This document shows positions 11,246 through 29,137 of a stretch of DNA of 64,000 bases, piece after piece. A program made the translations under genes and the position numbers. Each line of letters starts with the position of its first letter. The first letter of the stretch is position 1. Below the pieces are notes generated by a model that was not told the DNA's origin, did no database searches, and was given only the letters and a program-made list of their open reading frames with translations. Origin of the DNA: a virus (lineage: Duplodnaviria; Caudoviricetes); IMG/VR virus record IMGVR_UViG_3300006151_000007, positions 13,242 to 77,241 of that record. One strand, 5' to 3'.

Positions 11246-11449
11246 ATGATGAGTGAAAAGACGAAGAAGTGGCTGAGGGCGGCGGCTGTCCGGGCGGTCA
11301 AGACCATGGCGCAGACGGCGGTGGCCACCATCGGGGCGTCGGCGGTGCTCACCGCCGTGGACTGGCCCATGGTGGCGTCGGCGTCGGTGCTGGCTGGGGT
11401 GCTGTCCCTGCTCACCTCCCTGGCGGGCCTGCCGGAGGTGGAGGCATGA
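11246..11449 (+). CDS. Holin (phage r1t-like)
   Basis: RAVKTMAQTAVATIG...LAGVLSLLTSLAGLPEV; two TM segments. Confidence 0.85.
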   Translation: MMSEKTKKWLRAAAVRAVKTMAQTAVATIGASAVLTAVDWPMVASASVLAGVLSLLTSLAGLPEVEA

Positions 11450-12228
11450 ACCTGCTGGAATGTCTGCTCACCGCCAACCGGTGCTACAAGACCGGGGCGA
11501 AGATCAGGCCCAAAGGCGTGATGGTGCACTCCACCGGGGCCAACAACCCGATGCTCCGGCGGTATGTCCAGCCGGTGGCCACCACGCCGGAGAAGGATGA
11601 GCTGCTGTGGCAGCTCGGGGTGAACCGCAACGGGAACCACTGGAACCGCCCGGGCCTGGACGTGTGCGTCCACGCGTTCATCGGGAAGCTGGACGACGGC
11701 AGCGTAGCGGCGGTGCAGACGCTGCCGTGGGACCATCGAGGCTGGCACGCAGGGACCGGCACCAGCGGCAGGAGCGCCAACGACACCCACATCTCCTTCG
11801 AGATCTGCGAGGACGATCTGACCGACCCGGCCTATTTTGGTCAGGCGTACCAGACCGCCGTGGAGCTGACGGCTATGCTGTGCGCCCGCTACGGGCTGGA
11901 CCCCATGGCGGACGGAGTGGTGATCTGCCACCAGGATGGCTACCGCCGGGGAGTGGCCTCCAACCACGGGGACGTGTACAACTGGTTCCCCAAACACGGA
12001 AAAACGATGGACGACTTCCGGGCCGAGGTGGTCTGGGCGATGAAAGGAGATAGAGCGGACATGGTGTACTTCAAGACACTGGACGATGTGCCCGAATATT
12101 ACCGCGCAGCGGTTGACAAAGCAGTGGACAGGGGAGCGCTCAACGGCACCGGCGGCGGAGAGCTGAACGTTTCCGAGGACCTGTGCAGGACCCTCACTGT
12201 GCTGGACCGGCTGGGGAAGCTGGATTGA
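11446..12228 (+). CDS. Endolysin, N-acetylmuramoyl-L-alanine amidase (Amidase_2-like)
   Basis: GVMVHSTG, HAFIG, GWHAG, ISFEICED, CHQDG motifs; overlaps holin stop. Confidence 0.9.
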   Translation: MNLLECLLTANRCYKTGAKIRPKGVMVHSTGANNPMLRRYVQPVATTPEKDELLWQLGVNRNGNHWNRPGLDVCVHAFIGKLDDGSVAAVQTLPWDHRGWHAGTGTSGRSANDTHISFEICEDDLTDPAYFGQAYQTAVELTAMLCARYGLDPMADGVVICHQDGYRRGVASNHGDVYNWFPKHGKTMDDFRAEVVWAMKGDRADMVYFKTLDDVPEYYRAAVDKAVDRGALNGTGGGELNVSEDLCRTLTVLDRLGKLD

Positions 12229-12275: not shown

Positions 12276-12611
12276 ATGGATAACAAGAAAGAGAATCTTC
12301 CCATCAAGTTGGAATACAGCGACGTGCAGACCGTCCCGCTGGCGCTGCATGAGATGCACATGGCAAGGCTGAACCGGCTGCTTCGGTGGCTGTGCGTGGC
12401 CTGGGCGCTGTCTATGGCTTTCGTGGTCTCGGCCTTCATATGGCTCTGGAACCAGTACGACTACGAAAGCAGCACGGAGCTGTCGGGGGTCTATAACCTG
12501 GTCGATTCCCAAGGCAACGTGATCAGCTCCGACCTTTCCCCAGACGATGTCATCCGTATCCTGGAAGAGCTGAACGATGGCAAGGATCAGGCGGTCCAAG
12601 ACCAGAACTAA
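12276..12611 (+). CDS. Single-TM hypothetical protein
   Basis: One hydrophobic segment; RBS aaaggag. Confidence 0.65.
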   Translation: MDNKKENLPIKLEYSDVQTVPLALHEMHMARLNRLLRWLCVAWALSMAFVVSAFIWLWNQYDYESSTELSGVYNLVDSQGNVISSDLSPDDVIRILEELNDGKDQAVQDQN

Positions 12612-12616
12612 GAAAA

Positions 12617-12865
12617 ATGGGAAAAGCAAGGGTACGCGCGTGCATAAGTGACACCGGCCTCACCCGTTCAGAATGGGAGGCGGCGATCCAGGAGGCGGCC
12701 CTTGGGATAGAGGACACCCGCATCGCGGAGCTGTATCTTTTGGATGCGGTCCCGCAGGTCGATATCGGCGAAGAGCTTGGCTTGAGCCGCAGCGCCATAT
12801 CCAAGCGGCTGTTGAAGATCGTCGATAGGATAGAGCGCACGGCCAGAAAACTGCATATGATCTGA
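12617..12865 (+). CDS. HTH protein (sigma-70 region 4-like)
   Basis: PQVDIGEELGLSRSAISKRL. Confidence 0.7.
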   Translation: MGKARVRACISDTGLTRSEWEAAIQEAALGIEDTRIAELYLLDAVPQVDIGEELGLSRSAISKRLLKIVDRIERTARKLHMI

Positions 12866-12871
12866 CTGGCG

Positions 12872-12905
12872 GAACGCCCCCTCCGAATGATCGGAGGGGG
12901 CGTTC
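12872..12905. terminator. Hairpin terminator after late operon A
   Basis: Perfect 15-bp stem gaacgccccctccga/tcggagggggcgttc. Confidence 0.75.
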
Positions 12906-13072
12906 TATTGCGTATCTACTTGCTGGAGGAGTACATGAAAAGCCGTCTGGAAAACAAATTTATCCGCGCTATTCTTGATGTAAACTGATAACCGGCCCCA
13001 GAGGGAGGAACAGCTTACCCTTTCCCTGTTCCTCCTGCCTGCGGGCTTTGTCCTGTATTTTGGAAGGGGGCG

Positions 13073-13255
13073 ATGTCTTTGCCGAAAGAGCAACCCGATA
13101 AAGCGACGTATGAAATTGAACTTCCACAAGCCATTATAGAAACCTTTGCCCGCTTTCTTGTCCCGGAGATACGGATATACTATGACAGCGAACAGGGTCA
13201 GCGGGAGTTTGCGGAGTGGCAGGAAACACAAGGGGAGGGAATCAGCGAGAATTAA
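13073..13255 (+). CDS. 60-aa protein of the type found next to serine recombinases in Clostridia mobile elements
   Basis: IETFARFLVPEIRIYYDSEQGQREFAEW pattern; family recalled, not searched. Confidence 0.5.
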   Translation: MSLPKEQPDKATYEIELPQAIIETFARFLVPEIRIYYDSEQGQREFAEWQETQGEGISEN

Positions 13256-13263
13256 AGCGATAT

Positions 13264-13307
13264 GCAAAAGCAGGGAACAAGTCACAAATCTTGGCCCCTG
13301 CTTTTGC
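13264..13307. terminator. Bidirectional terminator
   Basis: gcaaaagcaggg...ccctgcttttgc between convergent genes. Confidence 0.65.
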
Positions 13308-13308
13308 C

Positions 13309-13827
13309 TTAGTGCAACTTGAAACCCAATTCGCGTATCATGTGGTAAAGATTTGCAACTTCGACTTCAAATACTTTTGCTATATCAGGTATTTTTGCAT
13401 TTTTACTTGGATACCTACTATTAAGTCCCTTGTTAGGAACTTCAAATGTAACTAAAGTATAGTTATGTGCGGATGCTGTTGCAATGAGCCATGGGTCAGC
13501 AACGCTTCCTTTTGACCACTCTGTCAATGCAGATGGCGTATAACATGGATTTCTTTGAATATATTGCAGGATAGCACTATACTTTTCCAAAATATTTGGT
13601 TGCCTATGATCTACATAAAGACCGATTTCAAGGGCATTCATCCACTCTTTCAGGCTATCGTTTCCCTGGAGGATTTCACTCCTTACTATATCCAAAATAG
13701 CTATTTTCCCATTCTTAATGGCCTGTTCCATCTGATTCCAAAATCCTGGAGCAAAATCAAATGGATAGTAAGTAAGATGTGGAGTTATCAATGAGTTTGA
13801 GTCAATCAAGAAAATGGCTTCACTCAT
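13309..13827 (-). CDS. DUF4411 family PIN-like protein (putative toxin)
   Basis: FLIDSNSLI...YYPFDFAPGFW...ADPWLIA...KIPDIA. Confidence 0.8.
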   Translation of the reverse strand: MSEAIFLIDSNSLITPHLTYYPFDFAPGFWNQMEQAIKNGKIAILDIVRSEILQGNDSLKEWMNALEIGLYVDHRQPNILEKYSAILQYIQRNPCYTPSALTEWSKGSVADPWLIATASAHNYTLVTFEVPNKGLNSRYPSKNAKIPDIAKVFEVEVANLYHMIRELGFKLH

Positions 13828-14999
13828 TTTGTTCCACCTCCTACACTACCAGCCAGATTAGCAAATGTAGAACGATTTGTATTTGTAAGCCGGTAAGCAT
13901 CAGTATAGAGGGTTTTTCCTTCCTGTACGCTACCTACGAGCATGGAAAAAAAACGTTTGTCAATTCTACTTGCAGCAGTGCGATAAAAATCTCCACCACT
14001 TTCACCCTGTTCTTTCTTCCTTTTTCGGCTATCATTATAGAGCTTTACTGCCTGCTTTGCTATTTTTTGATAAAGCTGATAATCAATAAACCCGCTGTCA
14101 TACGCTTTCCTTGCGATCACAGTAATGCCACACTTAAATTCACGCACAAGTATTTCAATTGCCTGTTCAACATTATTTTCTTTGATCGTTAAATTCCAAC
14201 TGTTTATAAATGTGGTTTGTGGCACCAATATTTCGGCTGCTACAGCATTACAAAGCGTTTCAGTTTTGTTAACCTTTTTCCCTGTGCTGTATCGATCATT
14301 AAATAAGCTATTCTCTCCTATACATATGTGAGAGAACTCATGCAACAAAGAGAAAAGCCTGCCATTTATAGAATCATTAGAATTAATAAAAATCAAGGGT
14401 GCATAAGCATCAATAACAGAAAAGGCCCTAAATTCTTCTACATCAAGTGGGCGATGAGTATTATTACCCACGATTCCACTCATCATCACAATAACCCCTG
14501 CGTTGCTGATCGCAGTTCTTATTAGACTAAAAGATTCTTCGACAGTGCAAGTGTCCTTATACCATTCATAGCTAATGTCTAACAAACTACGAACCTTTTG
14601 TGCAAACGTTTCAAAAGAAGATGTGCTTTTTAGCCCTCCAACAAAAGTCAAAGGACTATTTGCTTCAGAAATTAAATACTCATGCATCCACGTCTGCACT
14701 TGATCCATATCATGCAATGTATCAATTAAATTCCGACTTGGATTTTTTAATTCTATGCTATCGATTGTGCGGTACTCGACAATGGACAGCTCTTCTACTG
14801 GTGGAGTTTGCAAGAAAAAATACCCTAATGGTATACCTGTTGCTTTGCTCACTTTTTCAACTTGATTAAAGGTAGGTTTTTTTTCGCCGTTTACCCACAA
14901 ATTCAAATATTCTCTTATTTGATTTGGAAGTGCGTCAATTTTGATATGTGCAATAACCCAATCCAGTATCTCCATAGAAACATTGACAGGTACTTGCAT
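13824..14999 (-). CDS. XRE-HTH + ImmA/IrrE (M78) metallopeptidase
   Basis: W..GEKKPTFNQVEKVSKATGIPLGYFF; RLFSLLHEFSH (HExxH); 4-nt overlap with DUF4411 gene. Confidence 0.85.
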   Translation of the reverse strand: MQVPVNVSMEILDWVIAHIKIDALPNQIREYLNLWVNGEKKPTFNQVEKVSKATGIPLGYFFLQTPPVEELSIVEYRTIDSIELKNPSRNLIDTLHDMDQVQTWMHEYLISEANSPLTFVGGLKSTSSFETFAQKVRSLLDISYEWYKDTCTVEESFSLIRTAISNAGVIVMMSGIVGNNTHRPLDVEEFRAFSVIDAYAPLIFINSNDSINGRLFSLLHEFSHICIGENSLFNDRYSTGKKVNKTETLCNAVAAEILVPQTTFINSWNLTIKENNVEQAIEILVREFKCGITVIARKAYDSGFIDYQLYQKIAKQAVKLYNDSRKRKKEQGESGGDFYRTAASRIDKRFFSMLVGSVQEGKTLYTDAYRLTNTNRSTFANLAGSVGGGTK

Positions 15000-15070
15000 T
15001 ATATTCTCACCTCCAAATTATTACTTTTCGGCACCATCTCTATGATAACAATATTTTACTTTAATAATAG

Positions 15071-15104
15071 GCGGAGGTCAAGGCTTTTATACCTTGACCT
15101 CCGC
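15071..15104. terminator. Hairpin upstream of the ImmA operon promoter
   Basis: 13-bp perfect stem gcggaggtcaagg/ccttgacctccgc. Confidence 0.55.
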
Positions 15105-15337
15105 TGTTCATTTTGACATCAGAGCCACACCAAGACGACAAAGCCGCCCTTAAAATAATAGGTGTTCCTCCAATGTCCGCTTGCTGAAGACTGTCTTCTG
15201 TTCAGACGGACGATGCTGGGCATATTCGATTTTCATGGTAAACCTTCAGGAGCATAAATCTGGGTGCGCCTATATTGCTATAAACTGTGATATTTGTCAA
15301 CTAAAAAGGTAGAAATAAAAAAATATGCGCCAACGAG

Positions 15338-15369
15338 CAGCAAGGCGGGCCTAAGACTGCCCCGCCTTG
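15338..15369. terminator. GC-rich hairpin
   Basis: agcaaggcgggc/gcccgccttgct 12-bp stem. Confidence 0.45.
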
Positions 15370-15496
15370 CTCTGCACTAGACCAGGGGGGGCATAAGGTC
15401 ACATGGGATTTTGGTCAGTCTGGCTCCCCAGGGGCATTATGGGAAAGAAAAATGATGAAGGGGGCTAAATAGCCAGAAAAAGTTTTTGAAAACCTC

Positions 15497-15525
15497 TTGA
15501 CAGTGGGTTAAACCCATGCTATAAT
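15497..15525 (+). promoter_or_regulatory. Consensus sigma-A promoter with near-palindromic spacer
   Basis: TTGACA-17 nt-TATAAT with TG extension; spacer contains TGGGTTAAACCCA. Confidence 0.85.
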
Positions 15526-15556
15526 GGATACAACCTAAAGGAAAGGGGGGCGCAAA

Positions 15557-15709
15557 ATGGGGACCGAAGCTGAGAGGCAGGATACCAGAAAAGCGATGGC
15601 GTTTGATTTGTTTTCCATTATCGACAAAGACCCGGCGAAGGAGACCTACACAAAAGAAGAGATCAAAAAACTGATTTTTGTGTATGTTACCACAGCAGAC
15701 CAGAAGTAA
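15557..15709 (+). CDS. 50-aa hypothetical protein
   Basis: MGTEAERQDTRKAMAFDLFSIIDKDPAKETYTKEEIKKLI...; RBS and promoter directly upstream. Confidence 0.7.
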   Translation: MGTEAERQDTRKAMAFDLFSIIDKDPAKETYTKEEIKKLIFVYVTTADQK

Positions 15710-15753
15710 CAGGAACGGGGCCGGGGGACCGGCCCCGCCCAAGAGGTGAGGAC

Positions 15754-15927
15754 ATGGCAGAAACGCAAGCGCGAAAGGAATGGACGAAGGAAAACACTAC
15801 CTTCGTCGGCTTGAAACTGAACAACCGCACCGATAAAGATATTTTGGAGGCTTTGGAAGGGAGATCCAAGCAGACTGAAATAAAGCGGTTGATCCGTCAG
15901 GGCATGGAGCATGACCTATCAAAATGA
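15754..15927 (+). CDS. 57-aa ribbon-helix-helix-like regulator
   Basis: TTFVGLKLNNRTDKDILEALE...EIKRLIRQG; RBS gaggtga. Confidence 0.65.
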   Translation: MAETQARKEWTKENTTFVGLKLNNRTDKDILEALEGRSKQTEIKRLIRQGMEHDLSK

Positions 15928-15958
15928 AGCAAACATCCTTTTCTGAACAAGTACAGCG

Positions 15959-15992
15959 AAAACTCCTCCGCTGGAATCAGCGGAGGAGTTTT
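15959..15992. terminator. Bidirectional intrinsic terminator
   Basis: aaaactcctccgctg-gaat-cagcggaggagtttt. Confidence 0.85.
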
Positions 15993-17218
15993 TAGTCGGT
16001 CGAAACAGTTCCTAGAAGCTCTTCAAGCTTGTCGCGGTCCCAGAGGAGGACACCTGTGGCTTCGGCTAACTGCTTCGCGCCAGCAGTAAAATATTGATTG
16101 GTCATGACTACGCCCACTTGACAATGGTATAGTGCCTTCCCAGCGTGTACTTCCTGTATAGGTCCATTCCCCAGATTGGAGGAATAGCATTTACATTGGA
16201 TAGCATATCGAATACCATCCTTGACAGCTATAACATCAACTCCCTGGTCTCCACTGCCTTTTGTGACTTCAACATCGGTAAAGCCGTTCTTTTTTAGGAG
16301 TTCAGCACACCAATACTCAAATGCATGGCCATCCATACCGTCTGTTTCCTCTATTTTCCCAACAACAGCTTCGCACTGTTCGAGAATAGATAAACAAGCC
16401 ATTGCATCAATCAAGTTGCTATCGCTCATTTCAGATAAATGCCTTTCCATTTCTTCTGAAAATAATCGACTAAATCCAGCCCCATTTTCCCTTATTAGAT
16501 CTTTATAAAATGAAGTTGCCCGAATTAAGGCAGAATGGATTTGGAGTTCTTTGTTTTTCTCTAGTTCTTTCAAAATATTTGAAGGTTTATCTGTTAATCT
16601 GTTGCTTTTTGCAATAAATAGCTCGTATTTTGCCATAGTTGAAAGAATTGGTATTAACTTGTTTCTTTTTTCGAAATACGTATCAATGCGCACTGATTTA
16701 TTCATTTCGTCATTATAAGAAACGACATCCCATTTTTTCTGTTCCATATATCGATTTATAACTGCATAAAATCCATAAAAAATTGTAAAAGACCAAAAGG
16801 ATACAAAAACAAAGCAGAAAGAAATTTTGTTATAGTTTTCTGGAACCATTTTCAACATAAAAAATCCGATAATCAAAAGAACAACAAATCGGACCGCTCT
16901 TTCTGCCGTTGTGCTTGTTCGGCTATTTCCATCTTTTGTAAATTCTTTTTTAATTGCACGGCATATTGTATTGTCTACTTGTAAAGTGCTTCTTTTTCCG
17001 TCTTTGAAAAAAACAACTATAAAATTACCCTTATTGTAGAACTTTTTGATTTCAAAATTTTTTACATTGACCCAATCGTCTCCTACCTTAACTTCGCATC
17101 TATAAGCAGTTTCGGGAGATATCTTTACTGTTTTGAAAAATGGCAAGGTTATAACCACACTGGAAAAAGAAGTCAGAAGCCCTTGCCCTTTATAATCTCC
17201 GCTTATTACTTTGTTCAT
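15992..17218 (-). CDS. Membrane-anchored Mrr-like (type IV) restriction endonuclease
   Basis: Two TM helices; C-terminal MDGHAFE...GDQGVDVIA...AIQCK...IQEV Mrr_cat motifs; AT-rich. Confidence 0.8.
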   Translation of the reverse strand: MNKVISGDYKGQGLLTSFSSVVITLPFFKTVKISPETAYRCEVKVGDDWVNVKNFEIKKFYNKGNFIVVFFKDGKRSTLQVDNTICRAIKKEFTKDGNSRTSTTAERAVRFVVLLIIGFFMLKMVPENYNKISFCFVFVSFWSFTIFYGFYAVINRYMEQKKWDVVSYNDEMNKSVRIDTYFEKRNKLIPILSTMAKYELFIAKSNRLTDKPSNILKELEKNKELQIHSALIRATSFYKDLIRENGAGFSRLFSEEMERHLSEMSDSNLIDAMACLSILEQCEAVVGKIEETDGMDGHAFEYWCAELLKKNGFTDVEVTKGSGDQGVDVIAVKDGIRYAIQCKCYSSNLGNGPIQEVHAGKALYHCQVGVVMTNQYFTAGAKQLAEATGVLLWDRDKLEELLGTVSTD

Positions 17219-17345
17219 AAAATCCCCTCCACTTACAAAATACCACATTGTTTACAAAATATCAATATTTTCTTGAATTTTGTTATAAGCTGTGTTATTA
17301 TACAAAATATGGGCAAATGCCCTGGTTTTTTGGAGGGATGAGACA

Positions 17346-20404: not shown

Positions 20405-20878
20405 CTATTCATAGATGCTCGTATATTCCCCCATCCCGGAAAAGTCCATCTCCCCAGAGAACGTTCCTTTATATGGCGCGTCTACCGGGCCGGAAAGCTT
20501 TTCGAACATGATGAGCGCATACTTATCGCCTTCGCGTAGCTCGATCTCGTCATTCGATACGTTCGTCAGACGGAAAAAGACCTTCGTGTGGTGTCCCGGC
20601 TGATATATCGGAGCATCTAGGGACAAACCCTGACGGATCCTGCTGTTTTTCAGCGACAAGCGAGCTATCATATCGTTCGGTAGCTTGATGTTCTCCTTAG
20701 TGCCTACGAAAACCGATTCTCCGCTTTTCAAAGTGACGTGAGAAGTCAGGGCCTCTCGGGAGACGAAATGATCCGCACGCAGATCGTACCCGATGCTAGT
20801 GAGACAATCCGGCTCGTGGTTCTCGATCAGATCGTGCTTCGATATCCAGTTATGTATCTCGCGGTCTGTCAGCACCAT
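20405..20878 (-). CDS. dcd: dCTP deaminase / trimeric dUTPase-superfamily protein
   Basis: MVLTDREI...GYDLR...KSGESV...E.IKLPND..ARLSLKNSRIRQGL...YQPG; own minus-strand TATAAT. Confidence 0.65.
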   Translation of the reverse strand: MVLTDREIHNWISKHDLIENHEPDCLTSIGYDLRADHFVSREALTSHVTLKSGESVFVGTKENIKLPNDMIARLSLKNSRIRQGLSLDAPIYQPGHHTKVFFRLTNVSNDEIELREGDKYALIMFEKLSGPVDAPYKGTFSGEMDFSGMGEYTSIYE

Positions 20879-20970
20879 ATATACCCCTCCTCGCTGATGG
20901 TACGCTTATTATACACCGAACGATGAAGATCGTAAAGCAAGAAAAATACGCTTCGATTTGGAGGTGCCCG

Positions 20971-21357
20971 ATGGGCTACGCCTATTACGACCCGAACCCC
21001 GCCGGGCGGTCCGTCGGGGACTGCACCGTCCGGGCCATCTCGAAAGCTCTGGGGCAGACGTGGGAAGAGACCTATGTGGGGCTGGCCTTGGAAGGCTTCC
21101 GGTGTGGCGACCTGCCCAATGCCGACGATGTGTGGGGGAGCTACCTGAAAGCGCATGGCTTCACCCGGCACTGGCTCCCGGACGAGTGCCCGGAGTGCTA
21201 CACTGTGGCGGCGTTCGCGCAGGACGAGCCCCAGGGCATCTACGTCTTGTCCATGCCGGGCCGCCATGTGGTGACTGTGGTGGATGGGAGATATTTCGAC
21301 TCATGGGACAGCGGGGGAGAGGTCCCCACATACTACTGGATGAAGGAGCGTCGATGA
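20971..21357 (+). CDS. Cluster gene 1: putative papain-like (C39-like) Cys protein
   Basis: GDCTVRAI...GRHVVTVVDG.YFDSWDS gives a candidate Cys-His-Asp triad. Confidence 0.6.
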   Translation: MGYAYYDPNPAGRSVGDCTVRAISKALGQTWEETYVGLALEGFRCGDLPNADDVWGSYLKAHGFTRHWLPDECPECYTVAAFAQDEPQGIYVLSMPGRHVVTVVDGRYFDSWDSGGEVPTYYWMKERR

Positions 21358-21851
21358 TGGCATACCCTACCTATCAATATCCGGGCTACCAGCCCACACC
21401 GGTCTACTATCCGAGCCCTGTGCCCGACCAGCTCGCCCAGCTCCGGCAGAACCAGATGCAGCAGCCGATGATGCAGGGGCCGCAGATGCCGCAGCAGCCG
21501 GTCCAAGCTGTGCCCCAGCCTCAGCAGGCCGACCCCGGCGGGATCATCTGGGTGCAGGGAGATGCCGGAGCAAAAGCGTACATGGTGGCCCCTGGGAATA
21601 CGGTCCCGCTGTGGGACAGTGAGGACCAGGTGATCTATCTGAAATCGGTGGACATGTCCGGTATGCCGTCCATGCGGGTACTGGATTACACGGAGCGCAG
21701 CATCGCACAGCCACAGCGCCAGGAGCAAGCTGCGCCCAAGATAGACCTGACCCCATACATCACCCGGGACGAGCTGGAGGACATCCTGGCCGAGCGCCTG
21801 AAACGGCCTGGGAGGACCGCCAAGCCAAAGGAGGAAGCGAACGATGAGTAA
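21354..21851 (+). CDS. Cluster gene 2: Y/P/Q-rich N-terminus plus globular domain
   Basis: Low-complexity first 60 aa, then IIWVQG..GAKAY.VAPG..V.LWDSE. Confidence 0.75.
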   Translation: MMAYPTYQYPGYQPTPVYYPSPVPDQLAQLRQNQMQQPMMQGPQMPQQPVQAVPQPQQADPGGIIWVQGDAGAKAYMVAPGNTVPLWDSEDQVIYLKSVDMSGMPSMRVLDYTERSIAQPQRQEQAAPKIDLTPYITRDELEDILAERLKRPGRTAKPKEEANDE

Positions 21852-22086
21852 TCCCATTTTCCAGGCCCTTGGCGGGCCGTGCGGACAGCAGGGAGGCCCT
21901 ATGGGCATGATGCAGGCTTTCCAGCAGTTCATGCAGCAGAATCAGGGCAAGGACCCGAATGAGATGATCCGGCAGATGCTTTCCTCCGGCAAGCTCAACC
22001 AGCAGCAGCTCGACCAGGCCCAACAGATGGCGAAGCAGATGGAGGGGCCGCTGAGCGGGATGAAAGCGATGTTTGGTTTCAAGTAA
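21844..22086 (+). CDS. Cluster gene 3: Gln/Met-rich 80-aa protein
   Basis: Composition; overlap with gene 2. Confidence 0.75.
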   Translation: MSNPIFQALGGPCGQQGGPMGMMQAFQQFMQQNQGKDPNEMIRQMLSSGKLNQQQLDQAQQMAKQMEGPLSGMKAMFGFK

Positions 22087-22139
22087 GTCTAAAAATGCGG
22101 CCGCATTTTAGAAAATACATCAACAAAGGAGAGTAAACT

Positions 22140-23021
22140 ATGTCTCTTGGTAGTGAAAGCGGCGTTCCTGCCGTCATGAATGTGGCTCCCACCGGCTCCG
22201 GCTACAATGGGAACGGCGGCGGCTGGGGCGGTGATTGGGGAGCTTGGATCATCCTGTTCCTCATCTTCGGCATGTTCGGCTGGGGCGGCATGGGTGGCTT
22301 CGGCGGGTTCGGCGGCGGCGCCGGCCTCCAGGGTGCTCTGACCCGCGCCGACCTGTGCAGCGAGTTCAACTTCAACGGCCTGGAGAACGCCGTGCGTGGG
22401 GTACAGCAGGGCATCTGCGACAGCACCTATGCCCTCAACAACTCGATCAACGGCCTGGGCGTGAACGTCATGCAGGGCTTCCACGGCGTGGACAATGCCA
22501 TCTGTAACCTGGGCTTCACCACCCAGCAGGGCTTCAACGCCACCCAGGTGGCCATGATGCAGGGCAACAATGCTCTTCAGGCGCAGCTCGCCCAGTGCTG
22601 CTGCGACAACCGGGTGGGCCAGATGCAGATCGCCAACCAGATGCAGGCGGACACCTGTGCCCTGACCAACACCATGAACAACAACACCCGGGACACTTTG
22701 GCGAACCAGGACGCCAACGCTCGCGCCATCTTGGACGCCCTGACTGCCCAGCGGCTGGAGGCCAAGGACGAGCGCATCGCCGCTCAGGCCGCCCAGATCC
22801 AGGCGCTCCAGCTCAGCGCCTCCCAGGCGCAGCAGAACGCCGCGATCGGCGCGATGATCTCCGCCAGCGAGGCCACCATCCTGCGCCGCACCGGCGCGGA
22901 GTGCCCCACTCCTGCCTACGTGGTGCAGCCGCCCACTCCGGTGAACTTCCCCACCAACTGCTGCGGCACGTTCAACGGCTGGGGCAACAACGGCGGCTGT
23001 AACGGCGGCTGCGGGTGCTGA
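22140..23021 (+). CDS. Cluster gene 4: Gly-rich/hydrophobic N-terminus, long N/Q-rich coiled coil, Cys-rich tail
   Basis: WGAWIILFLIFGMFGWGG; QCCCD; CNGGCGC terminus; strong RBS. Confidence 0.8.
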   Translation: MSLGSESGVPAVMNVAPTGSGYNGNGGGWGGDWGAWIILFLIFGMFGWGGMGGFGGFGGGAGLQGALTRADLCSEFNFNGLENAVRGVQQGICDSTYALNNSINGLGVNVMQGFHGVDNAICNLGFTTQQGFNATQVAMMQGNNALQAQLAQCCCDNRVGQMQIANQMQADTCALTNTMNNNTRDTLANQDANARAILDALTAQRLEAKDERIAAQAAQIQALQLSASQAQQNAAIGAMISASEATILRRTGAECPTPAYVVQPPTPVNFPTNCCGTFNGWGNNGGCNGGCGC

Positions 23022-23139
23022 CACGATCCAACGCATTTTTTGACGCAGTCTGATGCGTTGGCTCCCCGGAACGACGGGTGATCATTTCGGGGCGGCGGAC
23101 CATGTGTCTGCTGCCCCTGACATTTAGGAGGTATGATCT

Positions 23140-23538
23140 ATGGCCTGTAGACCTGTCTGCAAGCTCTGTGACCGGCTGGTGATCAGCCAGGCCGTAACCT
23201 TTACCGGCGGCAATCTGGCGATCGACCTGCCCGCCGGGAACTATAACAACAAAGAAAAGTACTGCATCGTGGTGGCCCAGGCGATCCCTGCTGCCACGAC
23301 TATCAACGCGCCTGTGGTGGTCACCATCGGCGGCGGAACGGAGCTCTATCCTTTGACCGACCGTTGCTGCGCACAGCTCACCGCCTGCGCCATCCGGACC
23401 AGGACGCGGTATGCCACAGTGGTGTCCACCAGCGGGACCGGAGGCACGTTCAAGCTTCTGGGCAACGCCTGCCCGTGCCCCACCAACAACTTGGCCAGCA
23501 TCAACGGGACGGCCCCCGCCGCCGCGCCTACGGCCTGA
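23140..23538 (+). CDS. Cluster gene 5: Cys-rich beta-sandwich-like protein
   Basis: 9 Cys in 132 aa; beta-strand pattern; RBS aggagg. Confidence 0.75.
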   Translation: MACRPVCKLCDRLVISQAVTFTGGNLAIDLPAGNYNNKEKYCIVVAQAIPAATTINAPVVVTIGGGTELYPLTDRCCAQLTACAIRTRTRYATVVSTSGTGGTFKLLGNACPCPTNNLASINGTAPAAAPTA

Positions 23539-23554
23539 AAGGAGAGACGACATC

Positions 23555-23986
23555 ATGGAAAAACTTTACGACCTGAAGGACAAGCTGTGCGAGGAGCTGG
23601 AGGAACTCGCCCGCAAGCAGGAGATGGGAGCGGGGGATCTGGAAGTCATCCACAAGCTCACCGACACCATCAAGAACATCGATAAGATCTGTATGCTGGA
23701 GGACGAAGGCGGCTACAGCGAAGCTGTGGATGGCGGAGACTATGGCCAGGGCTCCAGCTATGCCGGCCGTGGCAGGCGCGATACCAGAGGCCGGTACAGT
23801 CGAGACGACGGGCGGGACGGCGGTATGGCCGGCTACAGTTCCCGCCGCCGGGACAGCCGCGGCCGCTACAGCCGCGACGATGGCCGCAGCGAGATGATGG
23901 AGCATCTGGAGATGGCTCTGGACTCCGCCACCGAAAAGGACCGGGAGACCATCAAGCGCTTCATGCGCCAGTTGGAGAACGCCTAA
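23555..23986 (+). CDS. Cluster gene 6: acidic helical protein with RDxRGRYSRDDGR repeats
   Basis: Two RRD(T/S)RGRYSRDDGR repeats; RBS aaggag. Confidence 0.75.
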   Translation: MEKLYDLKDKLCEELEELARKQEMGAGDLEVIHKLTDTIKNIDKICMLEDEGGYSEAVDGGDYGQGSSYAGRGRRDTRGRYSRDDGRDGGMAGYSSRRRDSRGRYSRDDGRSEMMEHLEMALDSATEKDRETIKRFMRQLENA

Positions 23987-23998
23987 GGGGGTGCGGCG

Positions 23999-24337
23999 AT
24001 GTCCGCGCCGAACCTCAAAGAGATAGAATGGGCCATCTCTGAGTTGGAGCAGGAGGAGAGCTCCGAAGGCCGGTACACGCTGCTGGCCGCGCTCTACACC
24101 TGCCGGAACGAGATGCTTGGCCTGTCCGCTCCCCAGCCGCAGATCGCGGCCTACTCGGAAGCGCCGGCTCCGGCCCAAGAACGGCTGGGCCATTATGGCG
24201 ACAGCGACTTTCTGAGGGCGGTAGCGGGGAAGGACCCGTCGGACGCATGGGCGGTCATGGACGAGCTCATGGAGACGCTCCAGGTGGTGAACCAGAGGGC
24301 CTATGACAGCGTGATGCGGAAGCTGGGGAGATTGTGA
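23999..24337 (+). CDS. Cluster gene 7: helical hypothetical protein
   Basis: RBS ggggtg; ends at terminator. Confidence 0.7.
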   Translation: MSAPNLKEIEWAISELEQEESSEGRYTLLAALYTCRNEMLGLSAPQPQIAAYSEAPAPAQERLGHYGDSDFLRAVAGKDPSDAWAVMDELMETLQVVNQRAYDSVMRKLGRL

Positions 24338-24339
24338 CG

Positions 24340-24366
24340 AGGAGGGGCTGAGAGGCCCCTCCTTTG
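24340..24366. terminator. Terminator closing the cluster
   Basis: aggaggggc-tgagag-gcccctcct then ttg. Confidence 0.7.
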
Positions 24367-24370
24367 TTAG

Positions 24371-24408
24371 CCATATATAGTATGACCTACGGGTTAGTTC
24401 AATTATGG
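24371..24408. other. Putative serine-integrase att site
   Basis: ccatatatagtatgacc-tacg-ggttagttcaattatgg: 17-bp arms, 10/17 inverted matches, overlapping the integrase stop. Confidence 0.5.
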
Positions 24409-25724
24409 CGAAAAGGAGATACAAAAAAACGGTCGTCGTTCGTCACGGTTATCGTGCCGATGACTCGGCTCCAAAACTCCTTTTTTTCCTGTCTTGAAAG
24501 CCATCCATACGCCATCAATATGTTTTGTACGGGCTTGATGTCTACGAGCTTGGGGGGCTGGGCTTCAGGAGCGTGGACTTCTCGCAACTGATCTCGCAGG
24601 GAAAGGTAGTCCCGTTCATACGACTCCTTTTCGATCAGGTCGTTCAGATACAGGTCCTTCAGCTTCTCCATCTTCCGCTTGATCTTTTCCACATCGACGG
24701 TCGGTCGTTTCGATACCGCCGATCGTGTGGCCAAAACATTATGCATCTCGTAGCTCGATATGAGGTTCTCCAAAAGCCATTGCTCCAGGACGAGTTCGCT
24801 CGTCCTTTTTTTATGTGTGCATAAGTGTAACTTCTCATATTTCGTACAGCGATAGTATGTATATTTTTTTGCGACCACATGAGCGCTCAACCGGTTCCCG
24901 CATTCTGCGCAACGCACGAGGCTGGTGAACAGATACACCCGGTCGGATCTGGCAAGGTTCCGTTGCGCTCGTTGCTTGAGCAATTCCTGGCATAGCTGGA
25001 ACTGCTCCTGCGAAATGATAGGCGGGCAGAAGTCGTCTTGCCCGTGCGCGCGGCCGATGTATCGTTCGTTATCTAAGAGGGCGCGGATCCCGGTCTGCCC
25101 GTACACGAGGCCATATTTGTTCATGACGTATTCCCGCAAGGCCCGGACCGACCGGATGATGGTATATTGCTGGAATATATCTTGTGCGATCGGCGCGGTG
25201 TCTGGGTCGATCGCCATCTTCTTGTTCTCTATCTTATATCCCAGAGGCACCTTTCCGCTGATGACCTCTCCACGCTGCACCTTATCTTCAAAAACGAACT
25301 TGATACGTTCTCCAGTCCTGTCCGCCTCGTCCTGAGCCACGCTGAGCATGATGTTTATCTTCAGCCGCCCGGATGCGGTGGAGGTGTCGTAATCCTCCTG
25401 GATGGTGCGCCAGTCCACGTGGCACTTCTCCAAGATCTCCTGGACTTTGTAGTACTCTGCGATATTGCGGAACCATCGGTCCAGCTTGGTGAACACGATG
25501 AGCTCGCCCCTTCCGGCCTGGGCGTCCAGGAGGAGTCGTTGCAGCTCCGGGCGCTTCTTGGCGGGCTTTCGGGCGGAAATGCCCGCGTCTATATAGACGC
25601 CCACCACCTTGTGCCCGTTGGTCTTGGCCCACTCCTCCAGGGCGGTGACCTGTGCCTCGATGGACAAGCCATGGACCGCCTGCTCCTCAGTGGATACACG
25701 GGCGTATAGGAAAACTCGCTTCAT
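24399..25724 (-). CDS. Large serine recombinase (integrase)
   Basis: YARVSTEEQ catalytic Ser motif; recombinase domain; Zn ribbon CAEC...YYRC...C; coiled coil. Confidence 0.95.
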   Translation of the reverse strand: MKRVFLYARVSTEEQAVHGLSIEAQVTALEEWAKTNGHKVVGVYIDAGISARKPAKKRPELQRLLLDAQAGRGELIVFTKLDRWFRNIAEYYKVQEILEKCHVDWRTIQEDYDTSTASGRLKINIMLSVAQDEADRTGERIKFVFEDKVQRGEVISGKVPLGYKIENKKMAIDPDTAPIAQDIFQQYTIIRSVRALREYVMNKYGLVYGQTGIRALLDNERYIGRAHGQDDFCPPIISQEQFQLCQELLKQRAQRNLARSDRVYLFTSLVRCAECGNRLSAHVVAKKYTYYRCTKYEKLHLCTHKKRTSELVLEQWLLENLISSYEMHNVLATRSAVSKRPTVDVEKIKRKMEKLKDLYLNDLIEKESYERDYLSLRDQLREVHAPEAQPPKLVDIKPVQNILMAYGWLSRQEKKEFWSRVIGTITVTNDDRFFVSPFRHN

Positions 25725-25860
25725 TTTATCATCTCCTGGAAAACGTTGCCCGACTCATGATACCACAAATGGGGTCCAATAAACCGGCACTTTAAGCGAT
25801 TTCTCGAAAAATCTACGGTTTCCACGAATGCGGCTGCTTCGTTTTGTGGAAGATTGCGGG

Positions 25861-25889
25861 TTGAAAGCGTGGAACGGTTGTATTATAAT
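25861..25889 (+). promoter_or_regulatory. Sigma-A promoter for the 33-aa gene
   Basis: TTGAAA-17-TATAAT. Confidence 0.7.
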
Positions 25890-25930
25890 TTGCAACAGGC
25901 AAGCGGATAATAGATTGGGAGGAGATATCG

Positions 25931-26032
25931 ATGAGGGACGCAATTTTAAGGGAAAAGATTTTGGAACTTCTTGAATCAGCCAAAGAACGCGAACTAGACC
26001 TAATATATAGGATCCTAAAAAACATGATATAG
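25931..26032 (+). CDS. 33-aa protein MRDAILREKILELLESAKERELDLIYRILKNMI
   Basis: Promoter and RBS gggagga; similar to 19061..19186. Confidence 0.65.
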   Translation: MRDAILREKILELLESAKERELDLIYRILKNMI

Positions 26033-26058
26033 AGATTACTTGGACTGAGCCAAACGGC

Positions 26059-26439
26059 TCAGTCCTTTTTTGTATCCCCAAACAACTCTAGCGCCTTTCG
26101 TTCAATAAACTCCCACTCTGATTCATCCAGCCGGGCCAATATCGACACAAAGCGTCGCTTAAAATTATCTTCTTCTCCTTTCAAAATGTTTCCGACAAAA
26201 TCTGCGATTTCTTGGCTACGGGTCGTAGGCACGAACATGTCTCCCTCGCCAGTTCGAAGCCAATTTTCATTTACATCAAACTCTCGGCAGATAGCCAAAC
26301 GTATTTGGTCGGAAACTGCATTTTCTCCATGTTCAATTTTAGAAATAGCAGATTTTTGTACGCCTACCCGTTCTCCAAATTTCTCCATTGTCAAGGCCTT
26401 AGCTTTCCTCACCTCTTTGATCCTTTCGTTTTCGGTCAA
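26059..26439 (-). CDS. CI-like XRE repressor (TTG start)
   Basis: RIKEVRKAKALTMEKFGERVGVQKSAISKIEHG HTH; RBS aaggaggtgg. Confidence 0.9.
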   Translation of the reverse strand: MTENERIKEVRKAKALTMEKFGERVGVQKSAISKIEHGENAVSDQIRLAICREFDVNENWLRTGEGDMFVPTTRSQEIADFVGNILKGEEDNFKRRFVSILARLDESEWEFIERKALELFGDTKKD

Positions 26440-26466
26440 ATCGACCACCTCCTTATTTACATTCAT

Positions 26467-28198: not shown

Positions 28199-28348
28199 AG
28201 GTCCGCTGGATGGTCTTCCATCCAGCGGTGATGGACAAGCCCTATCGGATCATGCCTCAACGATGAGCTTTTGACGTGAAGGGTCGTCTGTGGTCTTGAC
28301 ATAGTTGTGGGTATGAAAATACATTTTGTAACTTTGAGGAGGATAAAA

Positions 28349-29137
28349 ATGATCGAACTGACAAGAAACTTTCCCCTGGACGTCATCGAGCAGGGGTTGA
28401 AGGACGAGGACTGGCGTGTACGGGCCGCAGCGATGGACGCCTGTCAGGGGCGAGAGGTGCCCTTGGACATCATCGAGCAGGGGTTGAAGGACGAGGACTG
28501 GCGTGTACGGGCCGCAGCGGTGAACGCCTGTCAGGGGCGAGAGGTGCCCTTGGACATCATCGAGCAGGGGTTGAAGGACGAGGACTGGCGTGTACGGGTC
28601 GCAGCGGTGAACGCCTGTCAGGGGCGAGAGGTGCCCTTGGACATCATCGAGCAGGGGTTGAAGGACGAGGACTACGATGTACGGACCGCAGCGATGGACG
28701 CCTGTCAGGGGCGAGAGGTGCCCCTGGACATCATCGAGCAGTGGTTGAAGGACGAGGACTGGCGTGTACGGGCCGCAGCGGTGAACGCCTGTCAGGGGCG
28801 AGAGGTGCCCTTGGACATCATCGAGCAGGGGTTGAAGGACGAGGACTGGCGTGTACGGGTCGCAGCGGTGAACGCCTGTCAGGGGCGAGAGGTGCCCTTG
28901 GACATCATCGAGCAGGGGTTGAAGGACGAGGACTACGATGTACGGACCGCAGCGATGGACGCCTGTCAGGGGCGAGAGGTGCCCCTGGACATCATCGAGC
29001 AGTGGTTGAAGGACGAGGACTGGCGTGTACGGGCCGCAGCAATGAATGTATGGCCAGAGGGTGATCACCACCGAACTGCTGGCCCAGGTCTACGAGACCG
29101 ACACCAACAACATCACACAGAATTTCAAGCGCAATAA
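28349..29137 (+). CDS. HEAT-repeat protein
   Basis: 29-aa units PLDIIEQGLKDEDWRVRAAAVNACQGREV; RBS gaggagga. Confidence 0.8.
   Translation: MIELTRNFPLDVIEQGLKDEDWRVRAAAMDACQGREVPLDIIEQGLKDEDWRVRAAAVNACQGREVPLDIIEQGLKDEDWRVRVAAVNACQGREVPLDIIEQGLKDEDYDVRTAAMDACQGREVPLDIIEQWLKDEDWRVRAAAVNACQGREVPLDIIEQGLKDEDWRVRVAAVNACQGREVPLDIIEQGLKDEDYDVRTAAMDACQGREVPLDIIEQWLKDEDWRVRAAAMNVWPEGDHHRTAGPGLRDRHQQHHTEFQAQ
28373..29044 (+). repeat. Tandem 87-bp coding repeat, 7 full units plus 1 partial, with 261-bp higher-order period
   Basis: Unit starts 28373, 28460, 28547, 28634, 28721, 28808, 28895, 28982. Confidence 0.95.

Follow-up and report, generated by a model that had tools for sequence, protein, structure and literature searches.

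A mobile, self-contained gene cassette in tailed phages of gut and rumen Clostridia, with a predicted membrane-anchored stalk and a fibre-tip-like knob

The BclA-type exosporium nap of the Bacillus cereus group consists of a fibre stalk and a C1q-like BclA_C knob; it has Cys-rich parts, does without signal peptides, and is assembled in the cytoplasm and exposed only after lysis. Spanins of the lambda Rz/Rz1 type, encoded after holin and endolysin, include a protein that crosses the membrane once and carries a long coiled coil as well as conserved Cys; a Pro-rich element and a hydrophobic segment resembling a fusogen also belong to them. Phage fibre modules, such as T4 fibritin and the collagen-like fibres with C1q-type tips, combine a long helical shaft with knob folds and are followed by small helical genes. 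Morons (lambda bor and lom, HK97-type) are mobile, insulated by hairpins on both sides and found at various sites of the late region. Finally, activator-dependent late promoters such as those of Mu Mor/C, for whose activators B. subtilis GerE is a structural relative, combine a helix-turn-helix (HTH) protein of ~70 aa with a dyad and a -10 box, with no clear -35. We analysed a 64,000-nucleotide (nt) stretch of phage DNA, called the window below (bases 13242-77241 of the 77-kb IMG/VR virus record IMGVR_UViG_3300006151_000007), in which seven genes, g1 to g7 (20971-24337), represent one copy of an accessory cassette that is mobile and self-contained and occurs in tailed phages of gut and rumen Clostridia. 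With each of these systems the cassette has traits in common, some of them, such as the place of assembly, predicted; two more genes belong to it, one for a membrane protein (TM7) and one for a presumed regulator (HTH).

The cassette differs, however, from each of these systems. Its stalk, g4, is predicted to be a separate alpha-helical polypeptide anchored in the membrane, whereas the BclA stalk is a collagen repeat that is fused to its knob; the predicted fold of g5, the knob of this copy, is not that of BclA_C; partners of the ExsY, CotY or BxpB type are missing; and the cassette is phage-borne, lies after lysis genes and occurs in a lytic phage of a non-spore-former. Regarding the spanins, g4 does have a single predicted membrane pass, a coiled coil and conserved Cys and is encoded after an endolysin, but its predicted topology is opposite to that of Rz, with a rod that is cytoplasmic by its charge bias where Rz is periplasmic. 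Moreover, the carriers are Clostridia, whose cells have no outer membrane, no cassette protein has the N-terminal signal or lipobox of a lipoprotein partner, and g4 has five to eight partners instead of one. In contrast to the fibre modules, the cassette encodes shaft and knob separately, its shaft has a membrane-type anchor at the start, and the cassette has its own regulator and lies outside the tail gene block. Unlike morons, it has seven to nine genes in a fixed order, swappable slots and its own transcription factor, and it occurs in an apparently virulent phage. As to the Mu Mor/C-type promoters, the dyads of the cassette vary between loci and also resemble intrinsic terminators, and binding by the HTH protein is putative.

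The operon in the window has the following features:

20971-21357, + strand: g1, 128 aa, counted from the ATG behind GGAGG (the longest open reading frame starts at 20923)
21357-21851, + strand: g2
21844-22086, + strand: g3, 80 aa
22140-23021, + strand: g4, the hallmark protein
23140-23538, + strand: g5, 132 aa
23555-23986, + strand: g6
23999-24337, + strand: g7, 112 aa
24338-24368, + strand: terminator-like closing hairpin, -23.2 kcal/mol, z -4.7, not equalled by any shuffle

An earlier note on this DNA, made from the letters alone, had described a tight co-directional operon, and all seven open reading frames (ORFs) were found as it stated. A GGAG-type ribosome-binding site lies 5-10 nt 5' of every start codon, and adjacent ORFs are spaced by -8 to 118 nt. 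The low-complexity compositions were also borne out, with 13% P, 13% Q and 6% Y in g2, 21% Q, 14% M and 14% G in g3, 15% G and 13 Cys in g4 (including CCC and the CNGGCGC end), 9 Cys in g5, three of them N-terminal, and two copies of RRD[TS]RGRYSRDDGR in g6. The base composition is phage-like, as the note had it: GC content is 0.58-0.66, and at third codon positions (GC3) 0.78-0.88, comparable to the neighbouring phage late genes. The operon was said to be closed by a terminator, and the hairpin is indeed strong, but its U-tract is short; it lies 31 nt from the stop codon of a convergent serine integrase gene. The location at a "prophage end" is roughly right, since the operon sits between the late and cargo region of one phage and the integrase that heads a second one. 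As for its extent, the unit is larger than the seven genes, because two further conserved cassette genes lie at 12276-12865.

The evidence that this is a unit comes from its spread and its conserved gene order. Relatives of g4 form at least 7959 clusters at 90% identity and at least 2147 at 50%; they are present in at least 557 IMG/VR contigs and in 165 species genomes, every one of gut or rumen Clostridia. We clustered the genes of 163 loci (83 genome or phage loci and 80 IMG/VR loci) and assigned them to slots with family hidden Markov models (HMMs). The gene order is kept across these loci, which is far beyond chance, and in full it reads TM7, HTH, g1, g2, g3, g4, g5, g6, g7. The g2 and g4 slots are universal, while g1 and g7 are accessory. 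Three slots are filled in two ways:

slot 3, the small protein after g2: two unrelated forms (c4 and c10), without detectable homology
slot 5, a beta protein of ~135 aa after g4: two unrelated forms (c5 and c6), without homology
slot 6: either a g6-type protein or a DUF7841 protein (DUF7841 in c13, E 1e-28)

The two subfamilies of g2 (c2 and c12), on the other hand, are homologous, with an hhalign probability of 98.9%. The g7 cluster (c8) was found in 31 loci, always together with the g6-type protein (c1). Furthermore, g1 accompanies the g3-type small protein in 62 of 63 loci and the alternative small protein in only 2 of 58, and because of this co-occurrence we link the enzyme g1 to g3. The expectation of a co-conserved and undescribed multi-protein system, with a Cys-rich structural core and a small putative enzyme, is supported, and its co-conservation is seen in the fixed order in the 163 loci.

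No function for g1-g7 came from searches of Pfam, NCBIfam (E up to 0.1) or PHROGs. Five of the proteins belong to PHROGs families, all of them without an assigned function: g1 to phrog_3754 (E 1.6e-25), g2 to phrog_21718 (E 1.1e-27), g3 to phrog_22984 (E 3.8e-25), g4 to phrog_16490 (E 4.5e-66) and g6 to phrog_28802 (E 8.4e-11). Profiles of g1, g2, g5, the alternative knob, g6 and g7 gave nothing significant against PDB sequences, g7 had neither a family nor a PDB match, and the databases and papers searched do not state a function for any core component.

Regarding the single proteins, g1 has an invariant Cys18 and an invariant His99, and Asp105 and Asp110 are kept in at least 90% of 42 homologues. 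The residues follow the Cys, His, Asp order of papain-like peptidases, and we consider g1 a putative papain-like (clan CA, C39-like) enzyme, although it has no Pfam or PDB sequence match and only 3 of the 42 members show a faint match to Phage_YunG-like proteins. The g1 family also occurs alone, in Bacillus Tsamsa-like phages, in Geobacillus GBK2 and in Lak megaphages. Therefore, the proposal of a Cys-His-Asp protease agrees with the conserved residues, but its part as a dedicated coat-maturation protease does not hold, because the family occurs alone in unrelated phages. In g2 a disordered Y/P/Q-rich N-terminus is followed by a beta domain of ~55 aa and an amphipathic C-terminal helix. A small helical Q/M/G-rich protein is encoded by g3; a double-glycine leader was considered for it and rejected, as the candidate is weak and its GG is not invariant. 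The g6 protein has helical N- and C-termini around an R/G/Y/S-rich repeat region, and g7 is helical.

The hallmark protein g4 has an acidic N-tail, a Gly-rich transmembrane segment (~34-55), a helix at 80-105, a second one at 117-251 with the invariant CCC, and a Pro/Cys tail, conserved as CP..Y.VQPP..V.FPTNCCG...CGC. The AlphaFold2 model places the membrane helix at 34-45 and shows the helix 80-105 and one single 135-residue helix at 117-251, with the Cys/Pro tail unstructured. Among 79 relatives, the N-tail before the membrane segment has on average 0.35 Lys or Arg and the C-terminal flank 1.8; the excess is on the C side in 63 of the 79 and the reverse was found in none. Because of this bias, the positive-inside rule predicts that the g4 rod faces the cytoplasm, so that the C-terminal part should be cytoplasmic. 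The membrane segments of g4 and TM7 have hydrophobic scores above any segment of the other six proteins; the hydrophobic maximum of g5 comes close to them but lies inside its predicted beta-sandwich. Thus, the hydrophobicity scan revealed no clear signal peptide or membrane anchor in g1, g2, g3, g5, g6 or g7. In the ESM Atlas g4 led to unnamed viral clusters only and g2 to nothing. The N-terminus of g4 appears to co-vary with the types of g2, g3 and g6, a pattern that is inseparable from shared ancestry. A complex prediction with g4 (residues 140-293) and g5 scored 0.00, which gives no verdict and is evidence neither way. Fused forms of g4 or g1 were seen only in single, probably chimeric contigs. 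In two genomes (L057 and L059) the g4 homologue is apparently split into two ORFs and the neighbours differ, which may mean a decaying or variant copy.

The AlphaFold2 model of g5 is a beta-sandwich with a mean predicted local distance difference test score (pLDDT) of 83. In the PDB it is best matched by 9b45_2, a Pa193 baseplate/tail-fibre chain, to whose C-terminal domain it aligns (Z 5.6, root mean square deviation 3.6, 94 residues). BFVD gave matches to the terminal parts of collagen-like, receptor-binding and tail fibre proteins (E 2.6e-4 to 1e-3, TM-score 0.37-0.53). The alternative slot-5 protein (c6), which is absent from the window, matches BclA_C in 3 of 34 members. Both forms of slot 5 are thus fibre-tip-like in their predicted folds or matches, and this suggests a stalk-and-knob assembly with g4. 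The earlier note had stated that nothing here resembles virion genes; this is somewhat too strong, since the g5 fold resembles the tip domains of phage fibres. An identity of g5 with endospore appendage (Ena) pilins, which have a jellyroll fold and an N-terminal Cys connector, was set aside: g5 has its three N-terminal Cys, but no Ena chain appeared among the Foldseek/VIA matches and DUF3992 gave no match. The g5 fold is also matched by the BFVD entry A0A8S5LXP6, which bears the label of a DUF7841 protein and may be a fusion of slots 5 and 6. DUF7841 proteins are encoded in crAss-like phages too (NC_055893, NC_055888 and others), annotated there as "RNA polymerase sigma factor/ubiquitin-like protein"; a literature search on DUF7841 found nothing.

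The two remaining cassette genes and the signals inside the cassette are these:

12276-12611, + strand: TM7, membrane protein of 111 aa with a single pass, the next gene after the endolysin (11269-12228), HMM c7 E 2.5e-23
12617-12865, + strand: HTH, 82 aa, stand-alone sigma-70 region 4 / LuxR-GerE-type protein, HMMs c9 E 7.8e-5 and c11 E 4.9e-4
12872-12905, + strand: hairpin after the HTH gene, -31.8 kcal/mol, z -7.3, at the junction with an 8-kb insert
22088-22113, + strand: dyad/hairpin before g4, followed by AAATACATCAACAAAGGAG; local fold weak, -7.5 kcal/mol, z -1.8

The TM7 family has a size of ~100 aa and follows the endolysin in other loci as well; in the window's copy the strongest hydrophobic 19-mer spans residues 39-57. 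The window's HTH protein matches Pfam Sigma70_r4 with E 5e-4, which is under the curated cut-off. In its family (~68-70 aa) Sigma70_r4 was matched by 29 of 39 members (best E 6.7e-9) and GerE by 11 of 39, and the best natural PDB match of the family profile is GerE (1fse, E 8.5e-7). From these likenesses we presume that the HTH protein regulates the cassette. In most loci TM7 and HTH directly precede g1 or g2, whereas here ~8 kb of inserted DNA intervenes; with the HTH gene 8 kb away from g1, the presumed regulator can therefore act in trans.

A unit of hairpin, T-run and TATAAT-like -10 box lies 3' of the HTH gene in 23 of 46 loci, against an average of 0.45 for shuffles and 1 of 46 for control pieces. 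These promoter units consist of a dyad and a -10 box with no clear -35, and by inspection only the recurrent box is not sigma-E/sigma-K-like. In the window the hairpin after the HTH gene is without the T-run and the -10 box of the other loci, and neither a sigma-70-type promoter nor a hairpin-T-run-box unit was found 5' of g1. A hairpin in the g3-g4 spacer, seen directly in the upstream sequences, recurs in many loci: the stem sequences differ and the pairing is kept, the stems are often perfect palindromes, for instance around GCGGCCGC, TCTGGCCAGA or CAGCTG, and an AAATA-type box comes after them. The same spacer is an insertion hotspot, where we found an HNH/NUMOD4 homing endonuclease (L003, L046) and other small genes on the - strand.

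As for its place in phage genomes, the cassette usually forms the last part of the late operon: holin and endolysin genes lie upstream in the same direction, and integrase genes on the other strand lie downstream. In many loci the gap from the endolysin or holin gene to the first cassette gene is just 3-21 nt. Alternatively it lies among head genes; in at least 16 loci it was found between the portal or minor capsid gene and the scaffold or major capsid gene. Both positions point to late expression.

A search by tblastn with g1, and then with the HMMs, revealed a complete cassette in the Butyrivibrio virus Ceridwen (21873-26447), in the order TM7, HTH, g1, g2, g3, g4, BclA_C-like knob, an inserted mobile gene, g6, g7. 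It also carries the hairpin, T-run and -10-like unit of the other loci. The genome of 39.7 kb has all genes on one strand and no integrase. Only lytic growth has been observed for this phage, which its authors deem probably virulent (PMC7372960), and the genus Butyrivibrio is described as non-spore-forming (PMC6249431).

Ceridwen bears on the suggestion that the genes are restricted to spore-forming hosts, which fails on this complete cassette. Nor are carriers enriched in the sporulation gene SpoIVA, which is present in 46 of 50 carrier genomes (92%) and in 275 of 301 background Oscillospirales (91%). This host test cannot discriminate, because SpoIVA occurs in 91% of the order anyway. Of the four carriers that lack SpoIVA, three have Spo0A and SpoVA, so that 49 of the 50 carriers have sporulation markers. 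G035, one of the two genomes with a split g4, has no match to SpoIVA, Spo0A or SpoVA.

The explanation that we tentatively favour is that of a self-regulated cassette of the lytic cycle, which would build a stalk anchored in the membrane, add to it a knob resembling fibre tips together with disordered partners, and have the assembly exposed at lysis. In this mechanism the sigma-region-4/GerE-like HTH protein would be made at the end of the late operon, and the cassette proper would then be transcribed from its own -10-type promoter directly behind the terminator-like hairpin. The g4 protein would enter the cytoplasmic membrane through its Gly-rich segment and probably oligomerise into a coiled-coil rod of ~20 nm with a Cys/Pro-rich end. 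On this rod the knob (g5 here, the BclA_C-like protein elsewhere) and the partly disordered g2, g3, g6 and g7 may assemble, and g1 may process or modify g3. Because the partners have no export signal, the assembly would form on the cytoplasmic face and reach the outside only when the cell lyses; its target could then be the envelope, cell debris or progeny particles.

Several points weigh against this explanation. The late timing is deduced from gene position alone. In phages that infect Gram-positive bacteria, lysogenic-conversion genes classically lie just there, after the lysis genes and before the integrase, and such a site is in itself no proof of a lytic function. Here, 8 kb of DNA and a divergent gene cut the cassette off from the late operon, so that it needs a promoter of its own. 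The g4 model has a pLDDT >85 for residues 150-250 and a low one elsewhere, and the structural matches of g5 are modest (besides the Z of 5.6, Foldseek E >0.05 against the PDB). Neither the alignment columns of g4 nor its type of C-terminal tail co-vary with the type of slot 5, which is unexpected for a tight interface between stalk and knob. Finally, Ceridwen was the only cultured carrier found, and its genome encodes an antirepressor as well as an XRE regulator.

A fixed order, swappable slots, and a regulator and an enzyme of its own imply that the cassette encodes a real molecular machine, and its hallmark family has thousands of relatives in hundreds of phages of the dominant gut and rumen Clostridia. 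If the assembly acts at or after lysis, the textbook account of holin and endolysin in Gram-positive hosts would gain a step; should it decorate particles, it would be a new portable adsorption device. The cultured carrier Ceridwen, on B. fibrisolvens DSM 3071, makes this metagenomic puzzle testable at the bench. A more far-reaching claim, which we put forward as possible but doubtful, is that the cassette represents a new class of late function, a self-regulated "very late" apparatus whose disulfide- or metal-stapled membrane stalk-and-knob fibres, with their disordered partners, would coat, tether or shield progeny or debris after lysis, for example by receptor masking or as a protective matrix. 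We know of no phage that makes such a post-lysis structure.

Among the other explanations, an accessory virion fibre survives best, although we regard it as rather unlikely. Here g4 and g5 would form a stalk and knob on the head or tail, with g2, g6 and g7 as adaptors or chaperones and g1 as the maturation peptidase, giving a portable add-on for adsorption or adhesion. The fold of g5 is like the tips of tail fibres and receptor-binding proteins, and the alternative knob is BclA_C-like, a fold that is also found on collagen-like phage fibres. The long helix of g4 recalls fibritin-type shafts, the small helical genes 3' of the fibre gene are typical of fibre chaperones, and the loci inside the head gene block fit as well. 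Most copies, however, lie after the lysis genes and outside the structural block. Moreover, the conserved Gly-rich hydrophobic segment of g4 resembles a membrane anchor, and the cassette brings along its own regulator as well as a promoter that a terminator insulates. It is also optional and moves among phages with different structural genes, which makes a specific attachment site on the particle hard to see.

Expression during lysogeny, as a conversion module (moron), is unlikely. Such a module could exclude superinfecting phages, change the membrane on its inner side, or use its disordered Q/Y- and RG-rich proteins to form a condensate tethered to the membrane. In its favour, the cassette is an autonomous unit whose promoter-like box follows a terminator and which ends in a closing hairpin. 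Its carriers are mostly temperate, the integrase gene lying downstream; a place after the lysis genes and before the integrase is usual for conversion genes; and in this record a defence island and antirepressor genes adjoin it. But the complete cassette is kept in the integrase-free Ceridwen, the HTH gene often starts a few nt behind late genes, several copies are inside head operons, and TM7 and HTH had no match in a PADLOC scan that covered these two genes.

Quite improbable, in our view, is a fibre-shaped bacteriocin or adhesin released by lysis, whose knob would bind a target and whose g4 would enter the target membrane with its Gly-rich segment, with g3 or its alternative giving immunity. 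The partners lack an export signal, so release needs lysis, the knobs are swappable, the Gly-rich segment is like those of membrane-inserting peptides, and one alternative small protein shows a faint colicin-immunity match (E 0.12, below any threshold). Nevertheless, no toxin or immunity family was matched, the knobs are rather conserved (mean column identity 57% and 48%) instead of hypervariable, and the charge bias of g4 fits a stable anchor in the membrane of the producer.

Least probable of all is the spore-surface (coat or exosporium) module proposed in the earlier note, made in the mother cell, matured by g1 and exposed after mother-cell lysis: the Cys-rich, Q/Y-rich and R/S/Y-repeat compositions, the BclA_C match of the alternative knob, the GerE likeness of the regulator, the lack of export signals, as in coat proteins, and the sporulation markers of the carriers all speak for it, but a spore-specific role is argued against by Ceridwen, by g1 relatives alone in unrelated phages and by DUF7841 in crAss-like phages; the TATAAT-like box, the SpoIVA frequency of the carriers at the level of the order, the coupling to late and lysis genes or the place among head genes, and the g5 fold, which gave no endospore-appendage match, count against it too, and g1-g7 have no match to spore coat or exosporium families in Pfam or NCBIfam at E up to 0.1.

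Regarding the surroundings, self-comparison showed that the record holds two related siphophages one behind the other, whose head and tail genes are ~70% identical (DNA identity ~70% in the head genes); either a tandem prophage or a chimeric assembly may explain the arrangement. The second phage starts at the serine integrase and runs off the record in its own lysis region. On the 5' side of the operon lie, in this order, the tape measure gene, tail and fibre genes, the endolysin gene, a low-GC defence-type block, antirepressor and Bro genes, and a divergent dCTP-deaminase-like (DCD) gene. The low-GC island (GC 0.37-0.46), on the - strand at 12905-17248, is inserted between the HTH gene and g1 and looks like cargo of the defence or toxin-antitoxin type. 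The neighbouring genes are:

13309-13827, - strand: DUF4411 protein, in the island
13824-14999, - strand: protein with HTH and M78 peptidase, in the island, with RmrA-like PADLOC matches
15992-17248, - strand: Mrr_cat restriction-endonuclease-like protein, 418 aa, in the island
20405-20878, - strand: DCD gene, 157 aa, divergent from g1, no PADLOC match
24399-25724, - strand: large serine recombinase/integrase, heading the second phage

The DCD gene could have a nucleotide-depletion or dUTPase-like function. A mobile gene without a Pfam match (cluster c23) splits the minor capsid (Mu F-like) gene of this record in two (L005:6364-7026). It also occurs inside the cassettes of the loci L096-L106 and of Ceridwen (L168:24928-25722), at varying places: in other phages it is located on one side or the other of the knob gene, with g4 or g6 as its second neighbour. 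Its behaviour is that of a free-standing homing gene. Finally, the early region of the second phage has a tandem array with a period of 87 nt at 28373-29046, inside the ORF 28307-29137, with copies that are 92-97% identical.

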